Shown piece after piece: positions 30,145 to 41,123 of a stretch of 64,000 bases of DNA; position 1 is the stretch's first letter, and every line of letters starts with the position of its first letter. The DNA comes from Escherichia coli. Lineage in GTDB: Bacteria > Pseudomonadota > Gammaproteobacteria > Enterobacterales > Enterobacteriaceae. The stretch lies in the NCBI RefSeq assembly GCF_029227855.1, contig NZ_CP074356.1, one strand, 5' to 3'. A model generated the notes under the pieces. That model searched no databases and was not told where the DNA came from. It worked only from the letters and a program-made list of their open reading frames with translations. The position numbers and the translations under genes were made by a program.

Positions 30145-33100
30145 ATGAGTGAAGGACCAGGCGGGCCACAGGGAGCGACCGCAGGCGGTACGCTGGCAAT
30201 GCGAATGCTGTCACAGCAGGCGATGGTCGCCAGCCAGATGAAACGGGCAGCCAACGACAAAGCCATTGCACAGATGCTGGCATCAAAAAAGTCCGGCCCC
30301 CCCGCCGCCAGGCTGGGCGATGAAATTCAGCACAAGAGTTTTTTGGGGGCGCTGGCAGGGGCCGTGCTGGGGGCGATAGTGACCATCGCAGAAGGTTGCC
30401 TGATTATGGCCGCCTGTGCCACCGGCCCTTATGCGCTGGTTCTGGTGCCTGCGCTGATGTATGCCAGCTATAAGGCGAGTGATTATGTGGAGGAGAAACA
30501 GAACCAGCTTGAATCATGGATAAACAGCTTTTGTGACACGGACGGCGCCATCAATACCGGTTCTGAAAATGTAAACATTAACGGAAAGCCCGCTGCCAGG
30601 GCCGCCGTCACCCTTCCCCCTCCTCCCCCACCTGGAGCAATACCTGAAATCCCACAGGGGGAACCCTCATGGGGTGATATTGCCACTGACCTGCTTGAAT
30701 CGGCAGCGGAAAAAGCAGTACCACTGGCGAAGGCCTGGGGGAACGCTGTTATCACCCTGACGGACAGCAATGCCGGTTTTATGGATCGCGTCAGCGCCGG
30801 CGCATCGCTTCTGTTTCCCGCCGGTCCGGTATTAATGGAGTTTGCCACCATGGTGGGCGGGCGTGGCGAAATCAAAAAAGATGTGGATTTCCCGGAAGCC
30901 GGTGAGGACACGGCGCTCTGCGACAAGGAGAACAAACCACCGAGGATAGCCCAGGGCAGCAGCAACGTCTTTATCAACAATCAGCCCGCCGCGCGCAAGG
31001 GCGACAAACTGGAGTGCAGCGCGGCAATCGTGGAAGGTTCGCCGGACGTCTTTATTGGCGGTGAACAGGTGACCTATCTGGATATCCAGCCAGAGTTCCC
31101 GCCGTGGCAGAGAATGATCCTGGGGGGAATAACGATAGCCAGCTATCTTCTGCCGCCAGCGGGACTGCTGGGAAAACTGAAGAATCTGGCGAGACTCGGC
31201 AAACTGGGGAACCTGCTGGGGAAAAGCGGGAAGCTGCTGGGGGCAAAGCTCGGCGCGTTGCTGGGAAAAACAGATAAGTCGTTAAAAAGTATTGCCAATA
31301 AAGTCATCAGATGGGTAACAGATCCTGTCGATCCGGTAACCGGCGCGTACTGCGACGAACGTACCGACTTTACGCTGGGCCAGACCCTCCCCCTCTCCTT
31401 CACCCGTTTCCACAGTTCTGTACTGCCGCTGCATGGCCTGACCGGCGTGGGCTGGAGCGACTCCTGGAGCGAATACGCCTGGGTGCGTGAACAGGGAAAC
31501 CGGGTGGATATCATCAGCCAGGGAGCCACGCTGAACTTCGCCTTCGACGGTGACAGTGATACGGCGGTTAACCCGTATCACGCCCAGTACATTCTGCGCC
31601 GCCGCGATGATTATCTGGAGCTGTTCGACAGGGATGCACTGAGCAGCCGCTTCTTTTATGACGCCTTTCCGGGAATGCGTCTGCGCCACCCGGTGACTGA
31701 CGATACCAGCGATGACCGCCTGGCACACAGCCCCAATGACCGGATGTACATGCTGGGCGGGATGAGCGACACCGCCAGCAACCGCATCACGTTTGAGCGC
31801 GACAGCCAGTACCGGATCACAGGTGTCAGTCACACCGACGGGATCCGGCTTAAACTGACGTACCACGCCAGCGGCTACCTGAAAGCCATTCACCGCACGG
31901 ATAACGGCATACAGACGCTGGCGACCTACGAACAGGATGCGCGGGGGCGGCTGACAGAAGCGGATGCGCGGCTGGACTACCACCTGTTTTATGAGTACGA
32001 CGCTGCGGACCGGATCATCCGCTGGTCCGATAACGACCAGACGTGGAGCCGTTTCACCTACGATGAACAGGGCCGGTGCGTGAATGTCACCGGGGCGGAG
32101 GGCTATTACAACGCCACGCTGGACTATGGTGACGGCTGCACCACCGTGACGGACGGCAAGGGCATTCACCGTTATTACTATGATCCTGACGGCAATATTC
32201 TGCGGGAAGCAGCGCCGGACGGCAGCACCACCACGTATGAATGGGATGAATTCCATCACCTGCTGGCCCGTCACTCCCCTGCCGGGCGGGTGGAGAAATT
32301 TGAATACAACGCCGCACACGGTCAGTTAAGCCGTTACACGGCGGCAGACGGCGCGGAGTGGCAGTACCGCTATGATGAGCGCGGCCTGCTCAGCAACATC
32401 ACCGACCCTGCCGGGCAGACGTGGACACAGCAGTGTGATGAACGCGGCCTGCCGGTAAGTCTGGTGTCGCCACAGGGCGAAGAGACCCGGCTGGCATACA
32501 CCGCTCAGGGGCTGCTGTCGGGAATATTCCGCCAGGATGAACGGCGTCTGGGCATAGAGTACGACCACCACAACCGGCCGGAAACACTCACCGACGTGAT
32601 GGGCCGTGAACACCACACCGAATACAGCGGTCACGACCTGCCGGTGAAGATGCGCGGCCCCGGCGGTCAGTCAGTGCGGTTGCAGTGGCAGCAGCACCAT
32701 AAACTGAGTGGCCTTGAGCGCACTGGCACCGGCGCGGAAGGGTTCAGCTATGACCGCCACGGCAACCTGCTGGCCTGGACGGACGGCAATGGTGTTGTCT
32801 GGACAATGGAGTACGGCCCGTTCGATTTGCCGGTGGCGCGAACGGACGGTGAAGGCCACCGCTGGCAGTACCGCTATGATAAAGACACGCTGCAACTGAC
32901 AGAAGTCATTAACCCGCAGGGTGAGTCATATCTTTATGTTCTGGATAACTGCGGCCGGGTGACGGAAGAGCATGACTGGGGCGGCGTGGTCTGGCGTTAC
33001 CGCTATGACGCCGATGGCCTGTGTACCGCCAGGGTCAACGGCCTGGAGGAAACCATCCTCTACAGCCGGGACGACGCAGGCCGCCTGGCAGAAGTCATCA

Positions 33101-34974
33101 CGCCGGAAGGCAAAACGCAGTATGCGTATGACAAATCCGGCAGGCTGACGGGTATCTTCAGCCCGGACGGCACATCACAGCGCACCGGCTATGACGAACG
33201 CGGGCGGGTGAATGTCACCACTCAGGGCCGACGGGCCATTGAATACCACTACCCCGATGAACACACCGTCATCCGCTGTATCCTGCCACCGGAAGATGAA
33301 CGCGACAGACACCCCGGTGAATCCCTGCTGAAAACCACGTACCGCTACAACGCAGCCGGAGAACTGGCAGAGGTCATCCTGCCGGAGGATGAGACGCTGA
33401 CGTTCAGCCGTGATGAGGCAGGACGTGAAGTGCTCCGGCACAGTAACCGGGGTTTTGCCTGTGAGCAGGGCTGGAATGCAGCCGGTCAGCTTACCAGCCA
33501 GCGCGCCGGACTTTTCCCGGCAGAAGCCACATGGGGCGGGCTGCTCCCCTCACTGGTACGGGAGTACCGTTACGACAGCGCGGGCAATGTGTCGGCTGTC
33601 ACCAGCCGGGAAGATTACGGACGGGAAACTCGCCGGGAGTACCGGCTGGACCGGAACGGCCAGGTCACGGCGGTGACAGCCTCAGGCACCGGGCTGGGCT
33701 ATGGCGAAGGCGATGAGTCCTATGGCTATGACAGTTGTGGCTACCTGAAGGCGCAGTCTGCGGGCAGGCACCGGATAAGTGAAGAGACTGAGCGGTATGC
33801 CGGAGGCCACCGGCTGAAACAGGCCGGAAACACGCAGTATGACTATGACGCCGCAGGCCGGATGGTCAGCCGCACCAGACACCGTAACGGCTATCGCCCG
33901 GAAACAGAGCGGTTCCGGTGGGACAGCCGGGACCAGCTGACCGGGTATTGCAGCGCACAGGGTGAACAGTGGGAATACCGCCACGACGCCAGCGGCAGAC
34001 GGACGGAAAAACGCTGCGACCGGAAGAAAATCCGCTTCACGTACCTGTGGGACGGCGACAGTATTGCGGAAATCCGGGAATACCGCGATGATAAACTGTA
34101 CAGCGTAAGGCACCTGGTGTTTAACGGCTTTGAGCTGATAAGCCAGCAGTTTAGCCGGGTACGGCAGCCGCACCCGTCCGTGGCCCCGCAGTGGGTGACG
34201 CGGACGAATCATGCGGTGAGCGATCTGACGGGCCGTCCGCTGATGCTCTTTAACAGTGAAGGTAAAACCGTCTGGCGACCGGGACAGACCAGCCTGTGGG
34301 GGCTGGCACTCAGCCTGCCCGCGGACACCGGCTACCCGGACCCGCGCGGGGAACTGGACGCGGAAGCCGACCCCGGCCTGCTGTATGCAGGACAGTGGCA
34401 GGATGCGGAATCCGGGCTGTGCTATAACCGGTTCCGGTATTACGAGCCGGAAACAGGGATGTACCTGGTGAGTGATCCGCTGGGGTTGCTGGGGGGTGAG
34501 CAGACTTACCGGTATGTGCCGAATCCGTGTGGGTATGTTGATCCTTTGGGATTAGCAACATGTCCCATAATCAGACAACGGGTGCTGGCTAACCTTGAAG
34601 CCAGTCGGGCAGCAAGGGCTGCATCTAATTTTGGTAAGAAAAATATCTATGATTTTATCAAGGCAACTCAATCTGCTATCCCTGGCACCTCTATCCCAAA
34701 ATCTTTTGAGATTATAACTGCTAATGGTACTTTCTGGGTACACCCAAATGCTACAAAACATATGGCTGAATATTTGACTCGGAACGGTCTCTCACATTCA
34801 ACTTCTGTAGAGAGCCAAATAATGTTAACAAGTTTTCACGAAGCTGTAAGTTTGGCTAGTGCTCAAGGTATAAAGTATGAAGAAATGATGAATGTTGGCG
34901 GCTGGGAACTAGTATTTAGTCAAGCTAAATCTGACTCGGCTTTATCAGTTATTAAACATGCTCTTTATAAATGA
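30145..34974 (+). CDS. prePAAR/PAAR-domain Rhs polymorphic toxin (T6SS effector) with variable C-terminal toxin domain
   Basis: 1609 aa; prePAAR motif AARLGDEIQH near the N-terminus with hydrophobic helices; PAAR-like segment (GDKLECSAAIVEGSPDVFIGGE); many YD/RHS repeats; PxxxxDPxGL core-end motif (NPCGYVDPLGL) followed by about 150 aa of divergent C-terminus. Confidence 0.9.
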   Translation: MSEGPGGPQGATAGGTLAMRMLSQQAMVASQMKRAANDKAIAQMLASKKSGPPAARLGDEIQHKSFLGALAGAVLGAIVTIAEGCLIMAACATGPYALVLVPALMYASYKASDYVEEKQNQLESWINSFCDTDGAINTGSENVNINGKPAARAAVTLPPPPPPGAIPEIPQGEPSWGDIATDLLESAAEKAVPLAKAWGNAVITLTDSNAGFMDRVSAGASLLFPAGPVLMEFATMVGGRGEIKKDVDFPEAGEDTALCDKENKPPRIAQGSSNVFINNQPAARKGDKLECSAAIVEGSPDVFIGGEQVTYLDIQPEFPPWQRMILGGITIASYLLPPAGLLGKLKNLARLGKLGNLLGKSGKLLGAKLGALLGKTDKSLKSIANKVIRWVTDPVDPVTGAYCDERTDFTLGQTLPLSFTRFHSSVLPLHGLTGVGWSDSWSEYAWVREQGNRVDIISQGATLNFAFDGDSDTAVNPYHAQYILRRRDDYLELFDRDALSSRFFYDAFPGMRLRHPVTDDTSDDRLAHSPNDRMYMLGGMSDTASNRITFERDSQYRITGVSHTDGIRLKLTYHASGYLKAIHRTDNGIQTLATYEQDARGRLTEADARLDYHLFYEYDAADRIIRWSDNDQTWSRFTYDEQGRCVNVTGAEGYYNATLDYGDGCTTVTDGKGIHRYYYDPDGNILREAAPDGSTTTYEWDEFHHLLARHSPAGRVEKFEYNAAHGQLSRYTAADGAEWQYRYDERGLLSNITDPAGQTWTQQCDERGLPVSLVSPQGEETRLAYTAQGLLSGIFRQDERRLGIEYDHHNRPETLTDVMGREHHTEYSGHDLPVKMRGPGGQSVRLQWQQHHKLSGLERTGTGAEGFSYDRHGNLLAWTDGNGVVWTMEYGPFDLPVARTDGEGHRWQYRYDKDTLQLTEVINPQGESYLYVLDNCGRVTEEHDWGGVVWRYRYDADGLCTARVNGLEETILYSRDDAGRLAEVITPEGKTQYAYDKSGRLTGIFSPDGTSQRTGYDERGRVNVTTQGRRAIEYHYPDEHTVIRCILPPEDERDRHPGESLLKTTYRYNAAGELAEVILPEDETLTFSRDEAGREVLRHSNRGFACEQGWNAAGQLTSQRAGLFPAEATWGGLLPSLVREYRYDSAGNVSAVTSREDYGRETRREYRLDRNGQVTAVTASGTGLGYGEGDESYGYDSCGYLKAQSAGRHRISEETERYAGGHRLKQAGNTQYDYDAAGRMVSRTRHRNGYRPETERFRWDSRDQLTGYCSAQGEQWEYRHDASGRRTEKRCDRKKIRFTYLWDGDSIAEIREYRDDKLYSVRHLVFNGFELISQQFSRVRQPHPSVAPQWVTRTNHAVSDLTGRPLMLFNSEGKTVWRPGQTSLWGLALSLPADTGYPDPRGELDAEADPGLLYAGQWQDAESGLCYNRFRYYEPETGMYLVSDPLGLLGGEQTYRYVPNPCGYVDPLGLATCPIIRQRVLANLEASRAARAASNFGKKNIYDFIKATQSAIPGTSIPKSFEIITANGTFWVHPNATKHMAEYLTRNGLSHSTSVESQIMLTSFHEAVSLASAQGIKYEEMMNVGGWELVFSQAKSDSALSVIKHALYK

Positions 34975-35504
34975 CGATTATGCTTACATTAGAAAATGAA
35001 ACAAACTACAAAGATGTTGTTGTTAATATAGATGAATTTGTACCTTTTGATATAACTTTTGGAAAGGGGAGCGAACAGTGTTTGTACTGGAGAGGCGGCA
35101 ATGGTAAAAGTTCTTTGGTTGAAGTTGGGTTAAATATGTACAGCGGAGAAGTAAGTAACATCACACTAGCAAATATCGATTCAGGTGAAATTAACATTAC
35201 AGATGAGATGTTAGCCAACAACCTTCCTGAAATACAAGGGTCTGTTATATTTCAGACAAGCGAGTGGCTTAATAAAGACATTTCCGAATACTCAAACAGA
35301 TTTATTGATGATTTTGATTGCAATATCAAGTTAATAATTGGTAGTAATTACATTAAATTATTATTTAAAAAAGCAACAAATCCCATTTGTTATATCATTA
35401 ATAGGAATATAAGATTTGGTTTTTCTTTGAGTAGGGAACTTTCGACATTGGAAATATTAGACCTCAATCAAGAAAAATTAGATATTCTAAAGTTATTTAA
35501 ATAG
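34971..35504 (+). CDS. Putative cognate immunity protein for the Rhs C-terminal toxin
   Basis: 177-aa ORF whose ATG overlaps the rhs stop (ATGA); markedly AT-rich; position typical of rhsI genes. Confidence 0.7.
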   Translation: MTIMLTLENETNYKDVVVNIDEFVPFDITFGKGSEQCLYWRGGNGKSSLVEVGLNMYSGEVSNITLANIDSGEINITDEMLANNLPEIQGSVIFQTSEWLNKDISEYSNRFIDDFDCNIKLIIGSNYIKLLFKKATNPICYIINRNIRFGFSLSRELSTLEILDLNQEKLDILKLFK

Positions 35505-35983
35505 TTTTAGTGTTTGAAACTTACCGAGAGATGATAGCTATGAATGAATACAAAAACATCCATCTTGGAGGAAACAATGGAATGTTAATCCATTAAAAAA
35601 CATACTTCAATATCTTTAGTGAAGAAAGAGTTGTATGAAAGAAATATATCTTATGTGAGCGACATGATGCATGCTAATTATATTATTGGCCGGAAATTTT
35701 ATGATGATAGCAAAAAGGAGGGGTTATTTCTGTAAGAATGGATATACCCGCAGGGTTTGAACCAGACATTTATTTGTTGAAGTCTAAGATCCAAATGGAA
35801 GCATTTATATCCCTCAGATATTATGCGTTGACGGGTTGATAAAGATACTTTTAGAGGGTTAATAAATGGAGAACGTATAATAAATCTCTTAAACAAACTA
35901 TAACCTGTACTAATGAAAAAAATGGGAATAGATAAGTTAATAGCCTATTCTAAAAATGGTAAAGTGGTTTTACTTCCAAAATA

Positions 35984-36427
35984 ATGGAGTTTAGTATGAA
36001 AATCGAAGCTAATTCCCTTACTCATCCCTATGACTACAACGCCTCACTGAACAATTATTTACATTATTTTGAGAATTTCTCTCGTAATGACTGGAATAAA
36101 GATTCATGTGGAGGATATTTTACTTTTAGAGATGATGACAGAGAGTGTGTTTTGTTTTTTGTGAATTATGGTGATAATTTTTCATTGCGCTATGATTGTA
36201 CACAAAGTTCTGATGGAATAGTGTCATGCTGGTATAGTAACCATGAAGATGATAAAATGAATATCATCGTCGATGCTGATACAGAACAATTTATCCCTTT
36301 AGGTTCTTGCTTACCTCCTGATATTACTTTATCAGTAATAAAAGATTTTTTCAAAAATCCTTTAGAGAAATCAAAAAAAGTAAAATGGATGAATGCAGAT
36401 GACATTGACTGGTCATCTGTGTATTAA
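35984..36427 (+). CDS. Hypothetical protein, possible orphan immunity gene
   Basis: 147-aa ORF in AT-rich DNA downstream of the toxin/immunity pair; no recognisable motif. Confidence 0.4.
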   Translation: MEFSMKIEANSLTHPYDYNASLNNYLHYFENFSRNDWNKDSCGGYFTFRDDDRECVLFFVNYGDNFSLRYDCTQSSDGIVSCWYSNHEDDKMNIIVDADTEQFIPLGSCLPPDITLSVIKDFFKNPLEKSKKVKWMNADDIDWSSVY

Positions 36428-37318
36428 AGTTGGATTGGATAATTATCTGTTTCAAAAATCATTAAATTTAGAACCTATCTGTTCAACAGAGCTGCCTTGA
36501 ACAGCAGGTTCTTTTATGATGTCCAGGAGCGAATATGCCTGTGATGTCTGGCACTCAGCATCTGACTGACCTGGACTACTGATCCTACTCACACAGGGAG
36601 CTAGACCTGGAAGCAACCTACTGTAAGCAGTGCAGTAGCAGCCCACCTCACATCAGTCCTTGCAAGGTGTGGGCCTTTGTGATCTTGCTCTGTATTGCTG
36701 AGATCCTCAGGAAGGACTCGAAATTTAATCAGGAAGGCCGTTGCTAAAAATCAAAAAATAAATTCAAGAGCAATTTCTAAAACTTTTGAATCTACTGTAT
36801 CGGATGAGGTTTTCACTCCTTTCCAAAAGGTGAGTTTTCAAGCATTCAAGTTTCTGTTATGACCAAAACTTCACCATTTAACACTAATCCGAGTATTATG
36901 TTACCATGAAGAAAAAAGATATTAGATTTGCAATATCCATTAACTCCAACTCAAGTAAGATAGAATTAATGGAAAAATTAAAAACATAATCCCAGGGCTT
37001 ATTGAAATAACTCCCAGTGCATTAAGAGAAGAAAAAACATGGTAGTTATTGAAGATAATGATCTTTATGACTCTATAAAAGCAGAGGGAGTTGATGGATG
37101 GATGTATTATAAATTCATATTATCCATATTCCCATTAAAGGGAGTAGACACAACATTAGAATATCAACGGAAATTATCTTTTCTTTTCTTAAAGAAATTA
37201 AAAGATGCGGGTCTGTTAGGTGAACTTATATGCGAGGATGATTTTCATGACTGATGACCTCTACATATATCCTCAGTTCGTGGCTGGTATTACATGATCT
37301 GACAGGGAAAGATCGTAG

Positions 37319-37613
37319 CGAAATCAAAAAAGACGTGGATTTCCCGGAAGCCGGTGAAGACACGGCGCTCTGCGACAAGGAGACTAAACCGCCGAGGATA
37401 GCCCAGGGCAGCAGCAACGTTTTTATCAACAATCAGCCTGCCGCACGCCAGGGAGACAAACTGGAGTGCAGTGCGGCGATCGTGGAAGGTTCGCCGGACG
37501 TCTTTATTGGGGGTGAGCAGGTCACCTATCTGGATATCCAGCCGGAGTTCCCGCCGTGGCAGAGAATGATCCTGGGGGGAATAACGATAGCCAGCTATCT
37601 TCTGCCGCCAGCG
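37319..37613 (+). pseudogene. Duplicated fragment of the Rhs PAAR-domain region
   Basis: 295 bp nearly identical to 30867-31161 of the full-length rhs gene; encodes EIKKDVDFPEAGEDTALCDK...ITIASYLLPPA inside ORF 37254..37631; lacks the N-terminus and core. Confidence 0.85.
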
Positions 37614-37750
37614 CAGGGAAAGATCACGTAACGCTGCTTTTTTGTACTAAATAATTCGCACTAAATGTTCAATAATTGAGATATTCCTTATTACCTAAAT
37701 ACAGTTCCACCAAGATTACCTAAACCCAAATGAGGTAAAAGATAGTGGGT

Positions 37751-38112
37751 ATGAATAAAAATGAAATCCATTTCCCTATAGGATATGGTTGGTTGAATGA
37801 AAAAAAATTATTGGCACCAGTGAATTTAGCCAATTAGAACCATGGTTTTATCTAGATGAGAACAGGTGTTTTTTTGCGAATAAAAAATGGCCAAATGTCA
37901 TAGGTGAACAATTATTCGCTTTTGCTAAACGTCAAGATAATGATGAATTGGCTTGTTTCAAAATTAATGAATCTGGAGTCTGTGAGGGTGTTTATTTAAT
38001 TAATGGGTGGACTCCTAACGGGTTTGATATTATACAATTTTACCCTGATTTTTGGGAATGGGTACATTTGGTTATACAAGATGTCTCGGAGTGGATTGAT
38101 AATAAAGGATAA
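37751..38112 (+). pseudogene. Frameshifted small gene (immunity-protein-like) with an A8 tract at the frame switch
   Basis: ATG at 37751 reads 27 codons to a stop; a shifted frame from about 37813 continues for 99 codons to TAA at 38110-38112; the shift coincides with gaaaaaaaatt at 37798-37808. Confidence 0.45.
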
Positions 38113-38141
38113 TTTGAAACAAAAGTAAAAAACCGCCTTCA

Positions 38142-38840
38142 TTGAAGGTAACGTGGAGTGGTGGGCGGAGCAGCCTGCCCGCAGACACAGACTACCCGGA
38201 CCCGCGCGGGGAGCGGGACGCGGAAGCCGACCCCGGCCTGCTGTATGCAGGACAGTGGCAGGATGCGGAATCCGGACTGTGCTATAACCGGTTCCGGTAT
38301 TACGAGCCGGAAACCGGGATGTACCTGGTGAGTGATCCCCTGGGGTTGCTGGGGGGTGAGCAGACTTACCGGTATGTGCCTAATCCTAGTGGGTATGTTG
38401 ATCCTCTGGGATTAGCAACGTGTCCTATACTCAGACAGTGGGCGCTGACTAACCTTGAAGCCAGTCGGGCAGCAAGGGCTGCATCTAATTTTGGTAAGCC
38501 TCTGGTCCAGCGAAATAAAACGATTGGCGATAAAGTAAGGGATATGATTGCCAAAGAGAGGGGAACCACTCTAATTGAACAAAATTATAGAGTGACAGGA
38601 GGATTAAAGCGTATTGACGTTGTTGATGGAGTAACGGGTATAGAATCTAAAGTCGATCGAACAGGGTTAACAACCCGAGTACGGCAAGAGGTAGCGCGGG
38701 ATATTAAGATTTTGAGAAGTGAGCAACTTGATCAAATTGAATGGGTGTTTACAAGAAGTTCAACTACAGGGAAGATTGGGCCAACTAAACCACTTGAAGA
38801 TCTTTTAAATAAACATGGTATACCGATTATTTATCGATAA
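38142..38840 (+). CDS. Orphan Rhs C-terminal fragment: core end (DPxGL) plus alternative C-terminal toxin domain, candidate PD-(D/E)xK nuclease
   Basis: 38171-38498 nearly identical to 34311-34638 of the full rhs; the C-terminal domain diverges after ...AASNFGK; contains RIDVVDG...GIESK; the ORF begins at TTG and has no PAAR or core of its own. Confidence 0.7.
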   Translation: MKVTWSGGRSSLPADTDYPDPRGERDAEADPGLLYAGQWQDAESGLCYNRFRYYEPETGMYLVSDPLGLLGGEQTYRYVPNPSGYVDPLGLATCPILRQWALTNLEASRAARAASNFGKPLVQRNKTIGDKVRDMIAKERGTTLIEQNYRVTGGLKRIDVVDGVTGIESKVDRTGLTTRVRQEVARDIKILRSEQLDQIEWVFTRSSTTGKIGPTKPLEDLLNKHGIPIIYR

Positions 38841-38851
38841 GGAGTGATAGT

Positions 38852-39409
38852 GTGAAACTCAAACCGATTGGTGACTTTTTAAACAAAAATGGGTTTATAA
38901 AAAATGGTAACAATGATTTTTATAAAGTTCATGATAAGTTTGTAAATTGTATAAATTTTCAAAAAAAGAGTACAGGTGATATTTTTTTTATAAACACAGG
39001 TGTTCATCCTGTGTTCGAAAATTTTTGCAATGAACCACCGAAAAAAGAAATAGATTGTTACATCCGTAACCGTGTGTGTGATGGACTAAGTATATCTTTG
39101 CTGCATTCTTTTGAAGGTAGTGAGTTTGTTATCAGTGAGATAAAAAACAAAGCGTTTTGTTTTTTTGAATACTTTGATTCATTGAATAAAATATTCGATG
39201 CTATTCGTGTTGTAGATATTGAAGAGAGAAATATTTGCGATGAGCTAAGTGGTGTAAGCAGCGTAAGATTAGCTTTGATGTGTATGAACTACCAGTATGA
39301 GAAAAAAAAATTTAGCCTTGTTTCTGATTTTGCGAACTATGGTCTTGCTATATCTAGAGGCCCGGTACCGAAAAAAGCATTTAAGGATATGATAAAAATA
39401 ACAGAGTGA
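38852..39409 (+). CDS. Putative immunity protein for the orphan Rhs C-terminal toxin
   Basis: 185-aa AT-rich ORF with GTG start 11 bp after the orphan toxin stop and GGAG upstream. Confidence 0.6.
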   Translation: MKLKPIGDFLNKNGFIKNGNNDFYKVHDKFVNCINFQKKSTGDIFFINTGVHPVFENFCNEPPKKEIDCYIRNRVCDGLSISLLHSFEGSEFVISEIKNKAFCFFEYFDSLNKIFDAIRVVDIEERNICDELSGVSSVRLALMCMNYQYEKKKFSLVSDFANYGLAISRGPVPKKAFKDMIKITE

Positions 39410-39434
39410 TACCTAATCCGGTGTAATACTTGCT

Positions 39435-39646
39435 GCCTGTGTACCGCGAAGATTAACGGCCGGGAGGAAACTATTCTCTACAACCGGGACGCCACAGGCC
39501 GCCTGGCAGAAGTCATCACGCCGGAAGGCAAAACGCAGTATGCGTATGACAAATCCGGCAGGCTGACGGGTATCTTCAGCCCGGACGACACATCACAGCG
39601 CACCGGCTATGAAGAACGCGGGCGGGTGAATGTCACCACTCAGGGC
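39435..39646 (+). pseudogene. Internal Rhs core fragment
   Basis: About 210 bp at roughly 90% identity to 33018-33228 of the full-length rhs; truncated at both ends, abutting the ISAs1 left end. Confidence 0.8.
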
Positions 39647-40936
39647 AGGGAAAGATCATCCAAAGTACACTTTTTGTACTAAATAATTCGCATTTTATGT
39701 TTAAAAATGGAGATATTCCTCATTACCTAAAGCTGTTTTTTATTGCTTATACATGATCAAATACTCCTTACATAATTAAGGAGAACAAAATGGAACTTAA
39801 AAAATTGATGGAACATATTTCTATTATCCCCGATTACAGACAAGCCTGGAAAGTGGAACATAAATTATCGGATATTCTGCTGTTGACTATTTGTGCCGTT
39901 ATTTCGGGTGCAGAAGGCTGGGAAGATATAGAGGATTTTGGGGAAACACATCTCGATTTTTTGAAGCAATATGGTGATTTTGATAATGGTATTCCTGTTC
40001 ACGATACCATCGCCAGAGTTATATCCTGTATCAGTCCTTCAAAATTTCACGAGTGTTTTATTAACTGGATGCGAGATTGCCATACTTCAGATGATAAAGA
40101 CGTCATCGCAATTGATGGAAAAACACTCCGGCATTCTTATGACAAGAGTCGCCGCAAGGGAGCGATTCATGTCATTAGTGCGTTCTCAACAATGCACAGT
40201 CTGGTCATCGGACAGATCAGGACGGATGAGAAATCCAATGAAATTACAGCTATCCCTGAACTTCTTAACATGCTGGATATTAAAGGAAAAATCATCACAA
40301 CTGATGCGATGGGTTGCCAGAAAGATATTGCAGAGAAGATACAAAAACAGGGCGGTGATTATTTATTCGCTGTAAAAGGAAACCAGGGGCGGCTAAATAA
40401 AGCCTTCGAGGAAAAATTTCCGCTGAAAGAATTAAATAATCCAGAGCATGACAGTTACGCCATTAGTGAAAAGAGTCACGGCAGAGAAGAAATCCGTCTT
40501 CATATTGTTTGCGATGTCCCTGATGAACTTATTGATTTCACGTTTGAATGGAAAGGACTGAAGAAATTATGCGTGGCAGTCTCTTTTCGGTCAATAATAG
40601 CAGAACAAAAGAAAGAGCCAGAAATGACGGTCAGATATTATATCAGTTCTGCTGATTTAACCGCAGAGAAGTTCGCCACAGCAATCCGAAACCACTGGCG
40701 CGTGGAGAATAAGCTGCACTGGCGTCTGGACGTGGTAATGAATGAAGACGACTGCAAAATAAGAAGAGGAAACGCCGCAGAATTATTTTCAGGGATACGG
40801 CACATCGCTATTAATATTTTAACGAATGATAAGGTATTCAAGGCAGGGTTAAGACGTAAGATGCGAAAAGCAGCCATGGACAGAAACTATCTCGCGTCAG
40901 TCCTTGCGGGGAGCGGGCTTTCGTAATCTTGCCCTG
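39646..40936 (+). mobile_element. ISAs1-family insertion sequence (H-repeat element), about 1.29 kb
   Basis: Imperfect terminal inverted repeats CAGGGAAAGATCA (39646-39658) and TAATCTTGCCCTG (40924-40936); single transposase ORF; inserted in rhs-derived sequence. Confidence 0.75.
39790..40926 (+). CDS. ISAs1-family transposase (H-repeat-associated protein, YhhI/YdcC-like)
   Basis: 378-aa [55 protein letters not shown]...; the stop codon lies inside the right inverted repeat. Confidence 0.88.
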
Positions 40937-41123
40937 CGTTAACCGCCCCTCCTTGACACCACGCTTTTGTCTACATTCTACACAAACGGCAACTTTTATA
41001 ACCAGTGTAAAAATAACGTGCCGCAATAGTCATACCTATTAATGGTAAAAAGCTGTCACAATTCATAAAAAACCTTAATATACGCCACCCTAAACATAAC
41101 CAGCGTTAATGTAAGGTTTTTGT

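Follow-up and report, generated by a model that had tools for sequence, protein, structure and literature searches.

H-repeat elements (H-rpt, ISEc1) have been known since the 1990s to be associated with the Rhs loci of Escherichia coli. Zhao and colleagues, in 1993, are said to have described H-rpt as lying downstream of Rhs cores, with defective and tandem copies included, and reportedly gave its length as 1291 bp with an open reading frame (ORF) of roughly 1.13 kb. An H-repeat and an Rhs locus were noted between b0570 and b0569 (cusS and nfrB) in the E. coli W genome paper (PMC3032704), and neither H-rpt nor transposases come up in the article that treats Rhs C-terminal displacement (Jackson et al. 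2009, PMC2935791). Here we analyse a 64,000-nucleotide (nt) stretch of E. coli DNA (contig NZ_CP074356.1 of assembly GCF_029227855.1), hereafter the window, in which a 12-nt motif, CAGGGAAAGATC, recurs at breakpoints among rhs fragments between cusS and nfrB. In our reading this motif is, with high probability, the tip of the H-rpt left end, and insertions of this insertion sequence (IS) together with losses of DNA probably made the IS-marked rhs breakpoints.

A search of the 64 kb found exactly three exact copies of CAGGGAAAGATC, all on the + strand, at 37303-37314, 37614-37625 and 39646-39657 (copies 1, 2 and 3, respectively); the next base is A in copies 2 and 3 and G in copy 1. Allowing one mismatch adds a single match, inside vgrG (27843, - strand), which is a chance one, and in shuffled sequences 0.21 matches with at most one mismatch were expected while four were reached in none of 100 shuffles. 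The downstream rhs fragments were mapped using the main rhs gene of the island (30145-34974, + strand) as reference, and each motif copy was found to coincide to the nucleotide with an edge of homology to this gene. Copy 1 forms the left edge of a PAAR-region fragment, copy 2 its right edge and copy 3 the right edge of a mid-core fragment, with a 1-nt ambiguity (a C) at each of junctions 1 and 3. Chance recurrence was rejected by the shuffle test and by this exact coincidence with the breakpoints. Two other candidates were also rejected, viz., a conserved coding motif, as each of the three copies is read in a different frame by the ORFs that run across it, and a target-site duplication, as the motif lies inside the IS and no copy is flanked by duplications.

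On sequence grounds we assign CAGGGAAAGATC to nt 1-12 of the left terminal inverted repeat of H-rpt/ISEc1, of the ISAs1 family, and this end (CAGGGMAAGATYA being the H-rpt terminus sequence) would be the expected recognition site of the element's DDE transposase. Copy 3 opens an intact H-rpt of 1291 bp (39646-40936, + strand), which could be aligned over 1291 of 1291 nt, at 96.4% identity, with the K-12 H-rpt that carries yhhI downstream of rhsB (L007:7235-8525); the two are equal in length and identical at their termini (CAGGGAAAGATCA ... TAATCTTGCCCTG). Its transposase gene (39790-40926, + strand; 378 aa), annotated by RefSeq as 'ISAs1 family transposase', matches the NCBIfam equivalog model NF033564 (transpos_ISAs1) over the full model with 416.8 bits against a cut-off of 70. 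The right inverted repeat is located at ~40918-40936 (reverse complement CAGGGCAAGATTACGAAAG), and the left end CAGGGAAAGATCATCCAAAG matches the right end CAGGGCAAGATTA-CGAAAG at 16 of 20 aligned positions, the terminal repeats being imperfect inverted repeats that begin with CAGGG. All H-rpt left ends compared, from the cusS-nfrB loci of several strains, from K-12 RhsB, RhsC and RhsE and from strain GTEN_97 (seven aligned, plus further copies), start with CAGGGAAAGATCA; yncI in K-12 RhsE, a 67%-diverged family member, starts with CAGGGCAAGATCA.

Copy 2 leads into a relic of an H-rpt left end (37614-37699, + strand; IS nt 1-86, carrying the allele designated type B). The relic aligns with the first part of the intact element (37614-37699 with 39646-39731) over 86 nt with 81.4% identity (E = 3.6e-18), and intact H-rpt copies of other strains resemble it more closely still in their left ends (91-98% over 86-93 nt), so that the alignment from IS nt 1 extends well past the terminal 12-mer. 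The sequence-only reading of this DNA had reported a 12-13 bp sequence at 37303, 37614 and 39646, followed at the second and third sites by about 85 bp of similar sequence, and had taken the motif for the ISAs1 left end. These claims agree with our results: the three copies are exact and on one strand, pairwise alignment extends the similarity of copies 2 and 3 beyond the 12-mer, and the reference end, that of the K-12 yhhI H-rpt, is the same. Missing from that reading was a relic of an H-rpt right end (36647-36692, + strand; 46 nt, IS nt 1246-1291, 78% identity, ending ...GATCTTGCTCTG), located 610 bp upstream of copy 1. It is also present in strains RM8352, 09-00049 and L3_CS7_E2980 (loci L002, L003 and L016, respectively) and absent in strain N3 (L017), where the toxin-domain ORF is still present. 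The locus thus holds one intact H-rpt and the debris of at least three older copies, i.e., left ends of 86 nt and of 11-12 nt and a right end of 46 nt. The sequence ATTACCTAAA occurs twice at the end of the copy-2 relic, 25 nt apart (37690-37699, the last 10 nt of the relic, and 37715-37724), and may reflect either a small duplication or a microhomology that served in the truncation of the relic. A consensus scan for a promoter in the retained left end gave no more sites than in shuffles.

Copy 1 (37303-37314, + strand) comprises nt 1-11 or 1-12 of the left inverted repeat fused to rhs, since the C at 37314 can be assigned to either partner. The rhs partner is a second gene, truncated at its 5' side, which the tip enters at codon ~240. 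The rhs homology begins at 37314, no IS-like sequence follows, and no collinear IS alignment could be obtained beyond the terminal 12-mer. A probable IS tip is nevertheless indicated, since all 12 nt are identical and coincide precisely with a breakpoint. The earlier proposal that two left-end relics bracket the PAAR fragment holds in so far as H-rpt left-end sequence stands on both sides of it, as a true relic of 86 nt at copy 2 and, at copy 1, as 11-12 nt that are recognized by their position and improbability and not by an alignment.

The tip lies 48 nt past the stop of an immunity gene, and the segment 36692-37466, which is L017 6792-7568 in N3, follows in that strain a nucleotidyltransferase-domain ORF located after the main rhs gene. 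This layout places the tip 48 nt past the end of a former primary toxin-immunity pair, a position of the kind that H-rpt occupies elsewhere in these loci. In the window, the segment 36693-37302 (+ strand) consists of a toxin 3'-end remnant and a small immunity-type ORF (stop at 37252-37254), and is bordered on its left by the right-end relic and on its right by the 12-nt tip. The left flank of copy 1 was found in 139 complete genomes, with the tip-then-rhs junction in all displayed rows and by coverage counts, and in six contigs of a metagenome control scan, all of which read ...GATCG and then rhs. A chimeric query made of the left flank and the IS left end matched only N3 and GF43, both with 150 bp of rhs in between. 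The rhs sequence headed by the tip varies in length: it is 3.8-4.1 kb in 09-00049 and L3_CS7_E2980, where the gene is annotated without an N-terminus and has its own toxin and immunity gene, a 654-bp fragment in RM8352, and 150 bp followed by an intact H-rpt in N3.

Two side observations concern this junction. A TGATG stop/start overlap with the immunity-type ORF (37252-37256) opens a frame that runs through the tip (codons T-G-K-D), and the resulting ORF has 125 aa in the window, 1280 aa in 09-00049 (L003, 9350-13192) and 1400 aa in L3_CS7_E2980 (L016, 7350-11552); the two longer ORFs are uninterrupted and cover the whole truncated rhs gene, which RefSeq annotates as a pseudogene in both. In KY 1497, Survcare321 and similar genomes, the match to 36900-37330 ends at ~37226 in a locus with the IS66-family element ISCro1, which adds one more IS to this spacer, near 37227, by a recent insertion.

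Comparison across strains reveals that the H-rpt on the nfrB side has six different left junctions in 11 loci, its left neighbours being rhs (main-gene positions ~31780, ~32050 and 33228), part of a group II intron and two sequences unrelated to rhs. When N3 and copy 2 are included, junctions of rhs with an IS terminus are found at six or more rhs positions (main ~31014, 31161, ~31780, ~31930, ~32050 and 33228), and the IS is always in the same orientation as rhs; no insertion-site consensus was shared, by eye, among ~14 collected left flanks. The right junction is conserved, its undeleted form, in which the right inverted repeat is followed by 125 bp of the spacer upstream of nfrB, being present in 2287 of 5426 genomes. 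In the window, alignment with loci L002, L004 and L006 shows that 71 bp of this spacer are absent beside the right inverted repeat, at the junction 40936/40937. Target-site duplications are absent from all 12 full-length H-rpt copies that differ in their flank pairs, the K-12 reference copies among them, so that this trait does not help to place the element in the ISAs1 family; a replacement of the flanks, by deletion or by recombination, would leave no such duplications.

The copies are also mosaic. The H-rpts of L003 and L004 differ at 33 sites, of which 28 lie in the first 200 nt, and the window H-rpt is ~5% diverged from other copies in its first 600 nt and ~2% in the remainder. The first ~130 nt of H-rpt occur as two alleles ~20% apart on near-identical bodies (in the window and in L002, L003, L004, L006 and L007), allele A reading ...GATCATCMRAAGT... 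and allele B ...GATCAYSYAACGC.... Left-end relics of 12, 15, 86, 110 and 381 nt were seen, the one of 110 nt directly adjoining another H-rpt in N3. An intact H-rpt of N3 cuts the same PAAR fragment at another point, so that an event of this type is seen there in progress. Several H-rpt copies were thus once present in the locus, IS termini abut truncated rhs, and the copies have exchanged segments.

Other structures at or near IS termini were noted in two groups of strains. In RM8352 (E. coli O121), a 15-nt left-end relic is followed by the 5' part of a group II intron (L002 11530-12004, ~460 nt; Rfam RF01999, 93 bits), a fragment that is cut off by the resident ISEc1. The tip at 11530 in L002 was therefore rejected as an instance of recurrent cutting at IS nt 12-13, as the intron begins after nt 15, and the IS terminus served as a retroelement landing site in this strain. 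In EC190486 and CX15, a coding sequence annotated nrfB covers a match to the rhs PAAR region and may be an rhs-nfrB fusion produced by deletion of the whole array and the IS.

How these junctions arose can be outlined as follows, where the motif identity and the junction positions are observations and where we infer the deletion routes and the order of events. Time and again, H-rpt copies would have inserted into rhs modules or immediately behind them, always oriented like rhs, and the DNA between or beside them would have been lost through homologous recombination of directly oriented copies, through adjacent deletions made by the transposase, or through both. By either route, junctions of an rhs fragment with IS nucleotide 1 would be left behind without target-site duplications. 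Recombination between direct copies would explain why the copies are mosaic, lack duplications and all point the same way. Transposase-made adjacent deletions may have contributed too, and would account for losses that begin exactly at a terminus, such as that of the 71 bp. The relics of 12, 86 and 46 nt are truncated internally and are explained by neither route; additional illegitimate joins are needed for them.

The oldest step would be a single join of IS nt 12 to codon ~240 of the second rhs copy. It could have been a deletion running from IS nt 13 into a full rhs gene downstream, or the capture of an incoming rhs by a crossover in the body of a resident H-rpt combined with an illegitimate join at the tip. 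Subsequently, in the lineage of the window only, an H-rpt of type B would have cut the truncated gene 300 nt further on and would itself have been truncated after nt 86. In a third step, the H-rpt on the nfrB side would have gained the mid-core rhs fragment at its left and lost 71 bp at its right. The two events that bracket the PAAR fragment differ in age: the copy-1 junction is found in 139 genomes and the copy-2 junction is confined to 110 genomes of one lineage, that of the window, which makes the former an older single event and the latter a later one.

Several points weigh against this history. The IS origin of copy 1 would be a matter of 12 identical nucleotides and their placement, with no alignment behind it. 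Its precursor, the copy-1 flank running into a whole H-rpt, was not found in the 5426 complete genomes, and the metagenome scan gave no match to this flank followed by ...GATCA; a precursor of copy 2 with an intact IS at the site was likewise not found, the junction occurring only in the 110 genomes. The breakpoints at 38171 and 39435, the 5' edges of the orphan toxin and of the core fragment, respectively, carry no IS end. Zhao and colleagues, in the original description of H-rpt, reportedly saw no transposition of the element. The genome paper of E. coli W repeats this statement (PMC3032704), and in our analysis transposition would be hinted at only indirectly, by the variety of left junctions and by the strain-specific site of an intact copy in N3.

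The transposase could also have acted alone, with a resident H-rpt transposing intramolecularly into nearby rhs and deleting the adjacent DNA in one step, no extra copies being required. Junctions that fall precisely on the first and the last nt of an intact element without target-site duplications are what this would give, as are the precise start of the 71-bp loss at the right inverted repeat and the single orientation of all junctions. However, the relics of 12, 86 and 46 nt are truncated internally, which such a process could not bring about, extra and tandem partial H-rpt copies are present in the arrays, and the two left-end alleles, ~20% diverged on near-identical bodies, are better explained by exchange between copies. 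We therefore consider this alternative possible but rather unlikely.

A further explanation concerns copy 1 only, namely that it is a chance match or native rhs or intergenic sequence and that only copies 2 and 3 are IS ends. Although just 12 nt match and no intact-IS precursor was found, the expectation for a given exact 12-mer is only ~0.008 occurrences when both strands, 128 kb in all, are counted (128,000 / 4^12), and this one is placed exactly where the rhs homology begins and 48 nt past an immunity-gene stop, a kind of place in which H-rpt is found elsewhere in these loci. Moreover, the main rhs gene reads GGTGGGCGGGCGTGGCG at the equivalent place, which speaks against a native origin, and we regard this explanation as very improbable. 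Still less credence can be given to the 12-mer as a dedicated recombination site for rhs cassettes, attC- or dif-like, whose likeness to an IS end would be secondary. Such a site would fit the presence of the 12-mer at three module boundaries within 2.4 kb and of direct copies on either side of the PAAR fragment. However, two of the three copies run on into at least 86 nt of IS sequence, an inverted copy lies at the other IS end, the same 13-mer opens H-rpt at the unrelated RhsB, RhsC and RhsE loci of K-12, other module boundaries here lack the 12-mer, and the annotation of the island shows no tyrosine or serine recombinase gene. This explanation is largely refuted.

With IS-driven insertion and loss as the preferred account, its reach within the locus can be delimited. 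The sequence-only reading had proposed that H-repeat insertion and deletion shuffled the rhs pieces and displaced the orphan toxin. That H-rpt truncated and deleted rhs pieces is supported by the IS-marked breakpoints, but this cannot be extended to the breakpoints at 38171 and 39435. The breakpoints that lack an IS end, including the 5' edge of the orphan toxin, fit ordinary C-terminal displacement, and the displacement of the orphan toxin by H-rpt is not supported, as its layout is that of homologous C-terminal displacement.

The island consists of vgrG, a gene for a DcrB-related chaperone and PAAR-Rhs, and spans 27.7-41.1 kb of the window on the chromosome, in the cusS-nfrB interval. This type VI effector island is carried by ~40% of complete E. 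coli genomes, and the arrangement of window positions 35500-41100 recurs in 109 of the 5426, at 99.8% identity. The main gene encodes a PAAR-Rhs effector of 1609 aa, as identified from its ORF and the locus annotation. The PAAR-region fragment of the second rhs gene (37314-37613, + strand) is equivalent to main 30862-31161 (94% nt and 97% aa identity), gives a partial PAAR-domain match and is labelled 'PAAR domain-containing protein, incomplete' by RefSeq. The mid-core fragment (39435-39646, + strand) is equivalent to main 33017-33228 (94%) and terminates exactly at the IS terminus.

The orphan Rhs C-terminal module (38142-38840, + strand) retains 328 nt of the core 3' end (38171-38498, equivalent to main 34311-34638 at 94%; Rhs_assc_core, 67.5 bits), followed by a toxin tip, and is succeeded by a gene for a DUF4304 protein (38852-39409, + strand; RefSeq annotation and ORF), which is presumed to be the immunity gene for the orphan toxin. 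With a core 3' end, a divergent tip and the DUF4304 gene, the region 38142-39409 has the make-up of an Rhs orphan C-terminal module. The orphan toxin gave no significant match to Pfam. A comparison of its tip (38145-38789) with that of the main gene (34264-34956) revealed 52% identity over 237 aa, which makes it a diverged version of the current toxin and not an unrelated one. Between the copy-2 relic and this module lies a lineage-specific spacer (37700-38141, + strand), full-length matches to which are confined to 110 genomes. It contains a small ORF (37750-38112) that is frameshifted in a run of eight A; the corresponding stretch in NZ_CP162603.1 has 1 nt more and carries the annotation of an intact hypothetical protein, and the part queried against Pfam and NCBIfam (37840-38112) gave no significant match.

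A bolder interpretation, which we hold to be improbable, is that H-rpt is a still-active and orientation-biased remodeller of rhs arrays that prefers rhs, trims or swaps modules from the nfrB side and sometimes makes new genes. The 12-nt tip does supply four codons to the ORFs of 1280 aa (L003) and 1400 aa (L016), and the tip junction might have been retained because it yields an expressed, N-terminally truncated Rhs toxin or a reservoir for recombination. Moreover, the whole orphan array is enclosed by an inverted pair, made up of the tip and of the distal right inverted repeat, and an array so enclosed could in principle be mobilized in one piece.

The motif is an ordinary scar of a known mobile element in a known association with rhs. 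Mildly new are the variation of the left junction at the nfrB-side copy, the two left-end alleles and the 1280- and 1400-aa ORFs that span the tip. As a marker, the motif allows H-rpt scars of 12-86 nt that gene callers overlook to be recognized, and it separates IS-made breakpoints from those of homologous C-terminal displacement. One conserved junction, many left junctions and mosaic copies suggest that H-rpt has acted both as an active deleter and as a recombination anchor in this type VI effector island.

Among described systems, the displacement model of Jackson et al. (PMC2935791) predicts the layout seen in the orphan module at 38142-39409; however, it involves no IS elements and leaves unaccounted for the PAAR and mid-core fragments that end at IS termini. 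The deletions and the IS-by-IS recombination generally known for IS1, IS26 and IS629 resemble the window in having one fixed and one variable junction, an intact element, no duplications and mosaic copies, and differ in that the mechanism proposed for H-rpt is drawn from comparative structure alone. The H-rpt/ISEc1 copies of K-12 (yhhI in RhsB and ydcC in RhsE) are similar to the window copy in length (1291 bp), in their 378-aa ORF, in their location downstream of an rhs core and in lacking a target-site duplication, whereas the window copy lies in a cusS-nfrB vgrG/rhs island that is absent from K-12 and is ~5% diverged in its left half. In K-12 RhsC (L008 8303-10926), three H-rpt pieces are arranged head to tail, comprising nt 1-381, nt 1-1291 and nt 25-911 plus 1225-1291, and the third, which opens with IS nt 25, immediately adjoins the right end of the second; this suggests an insertion into, or unequal exchange near, the left end of another copy. 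This RhsC array (ybfQ, ybfL and ybfD) parallels the window in that truncated H-rpt pieces abut each other or foreign DNA, whereas the relics in the window are much shorter and, instead of standing head to tail, are split by rhs fragments and immunity genes.

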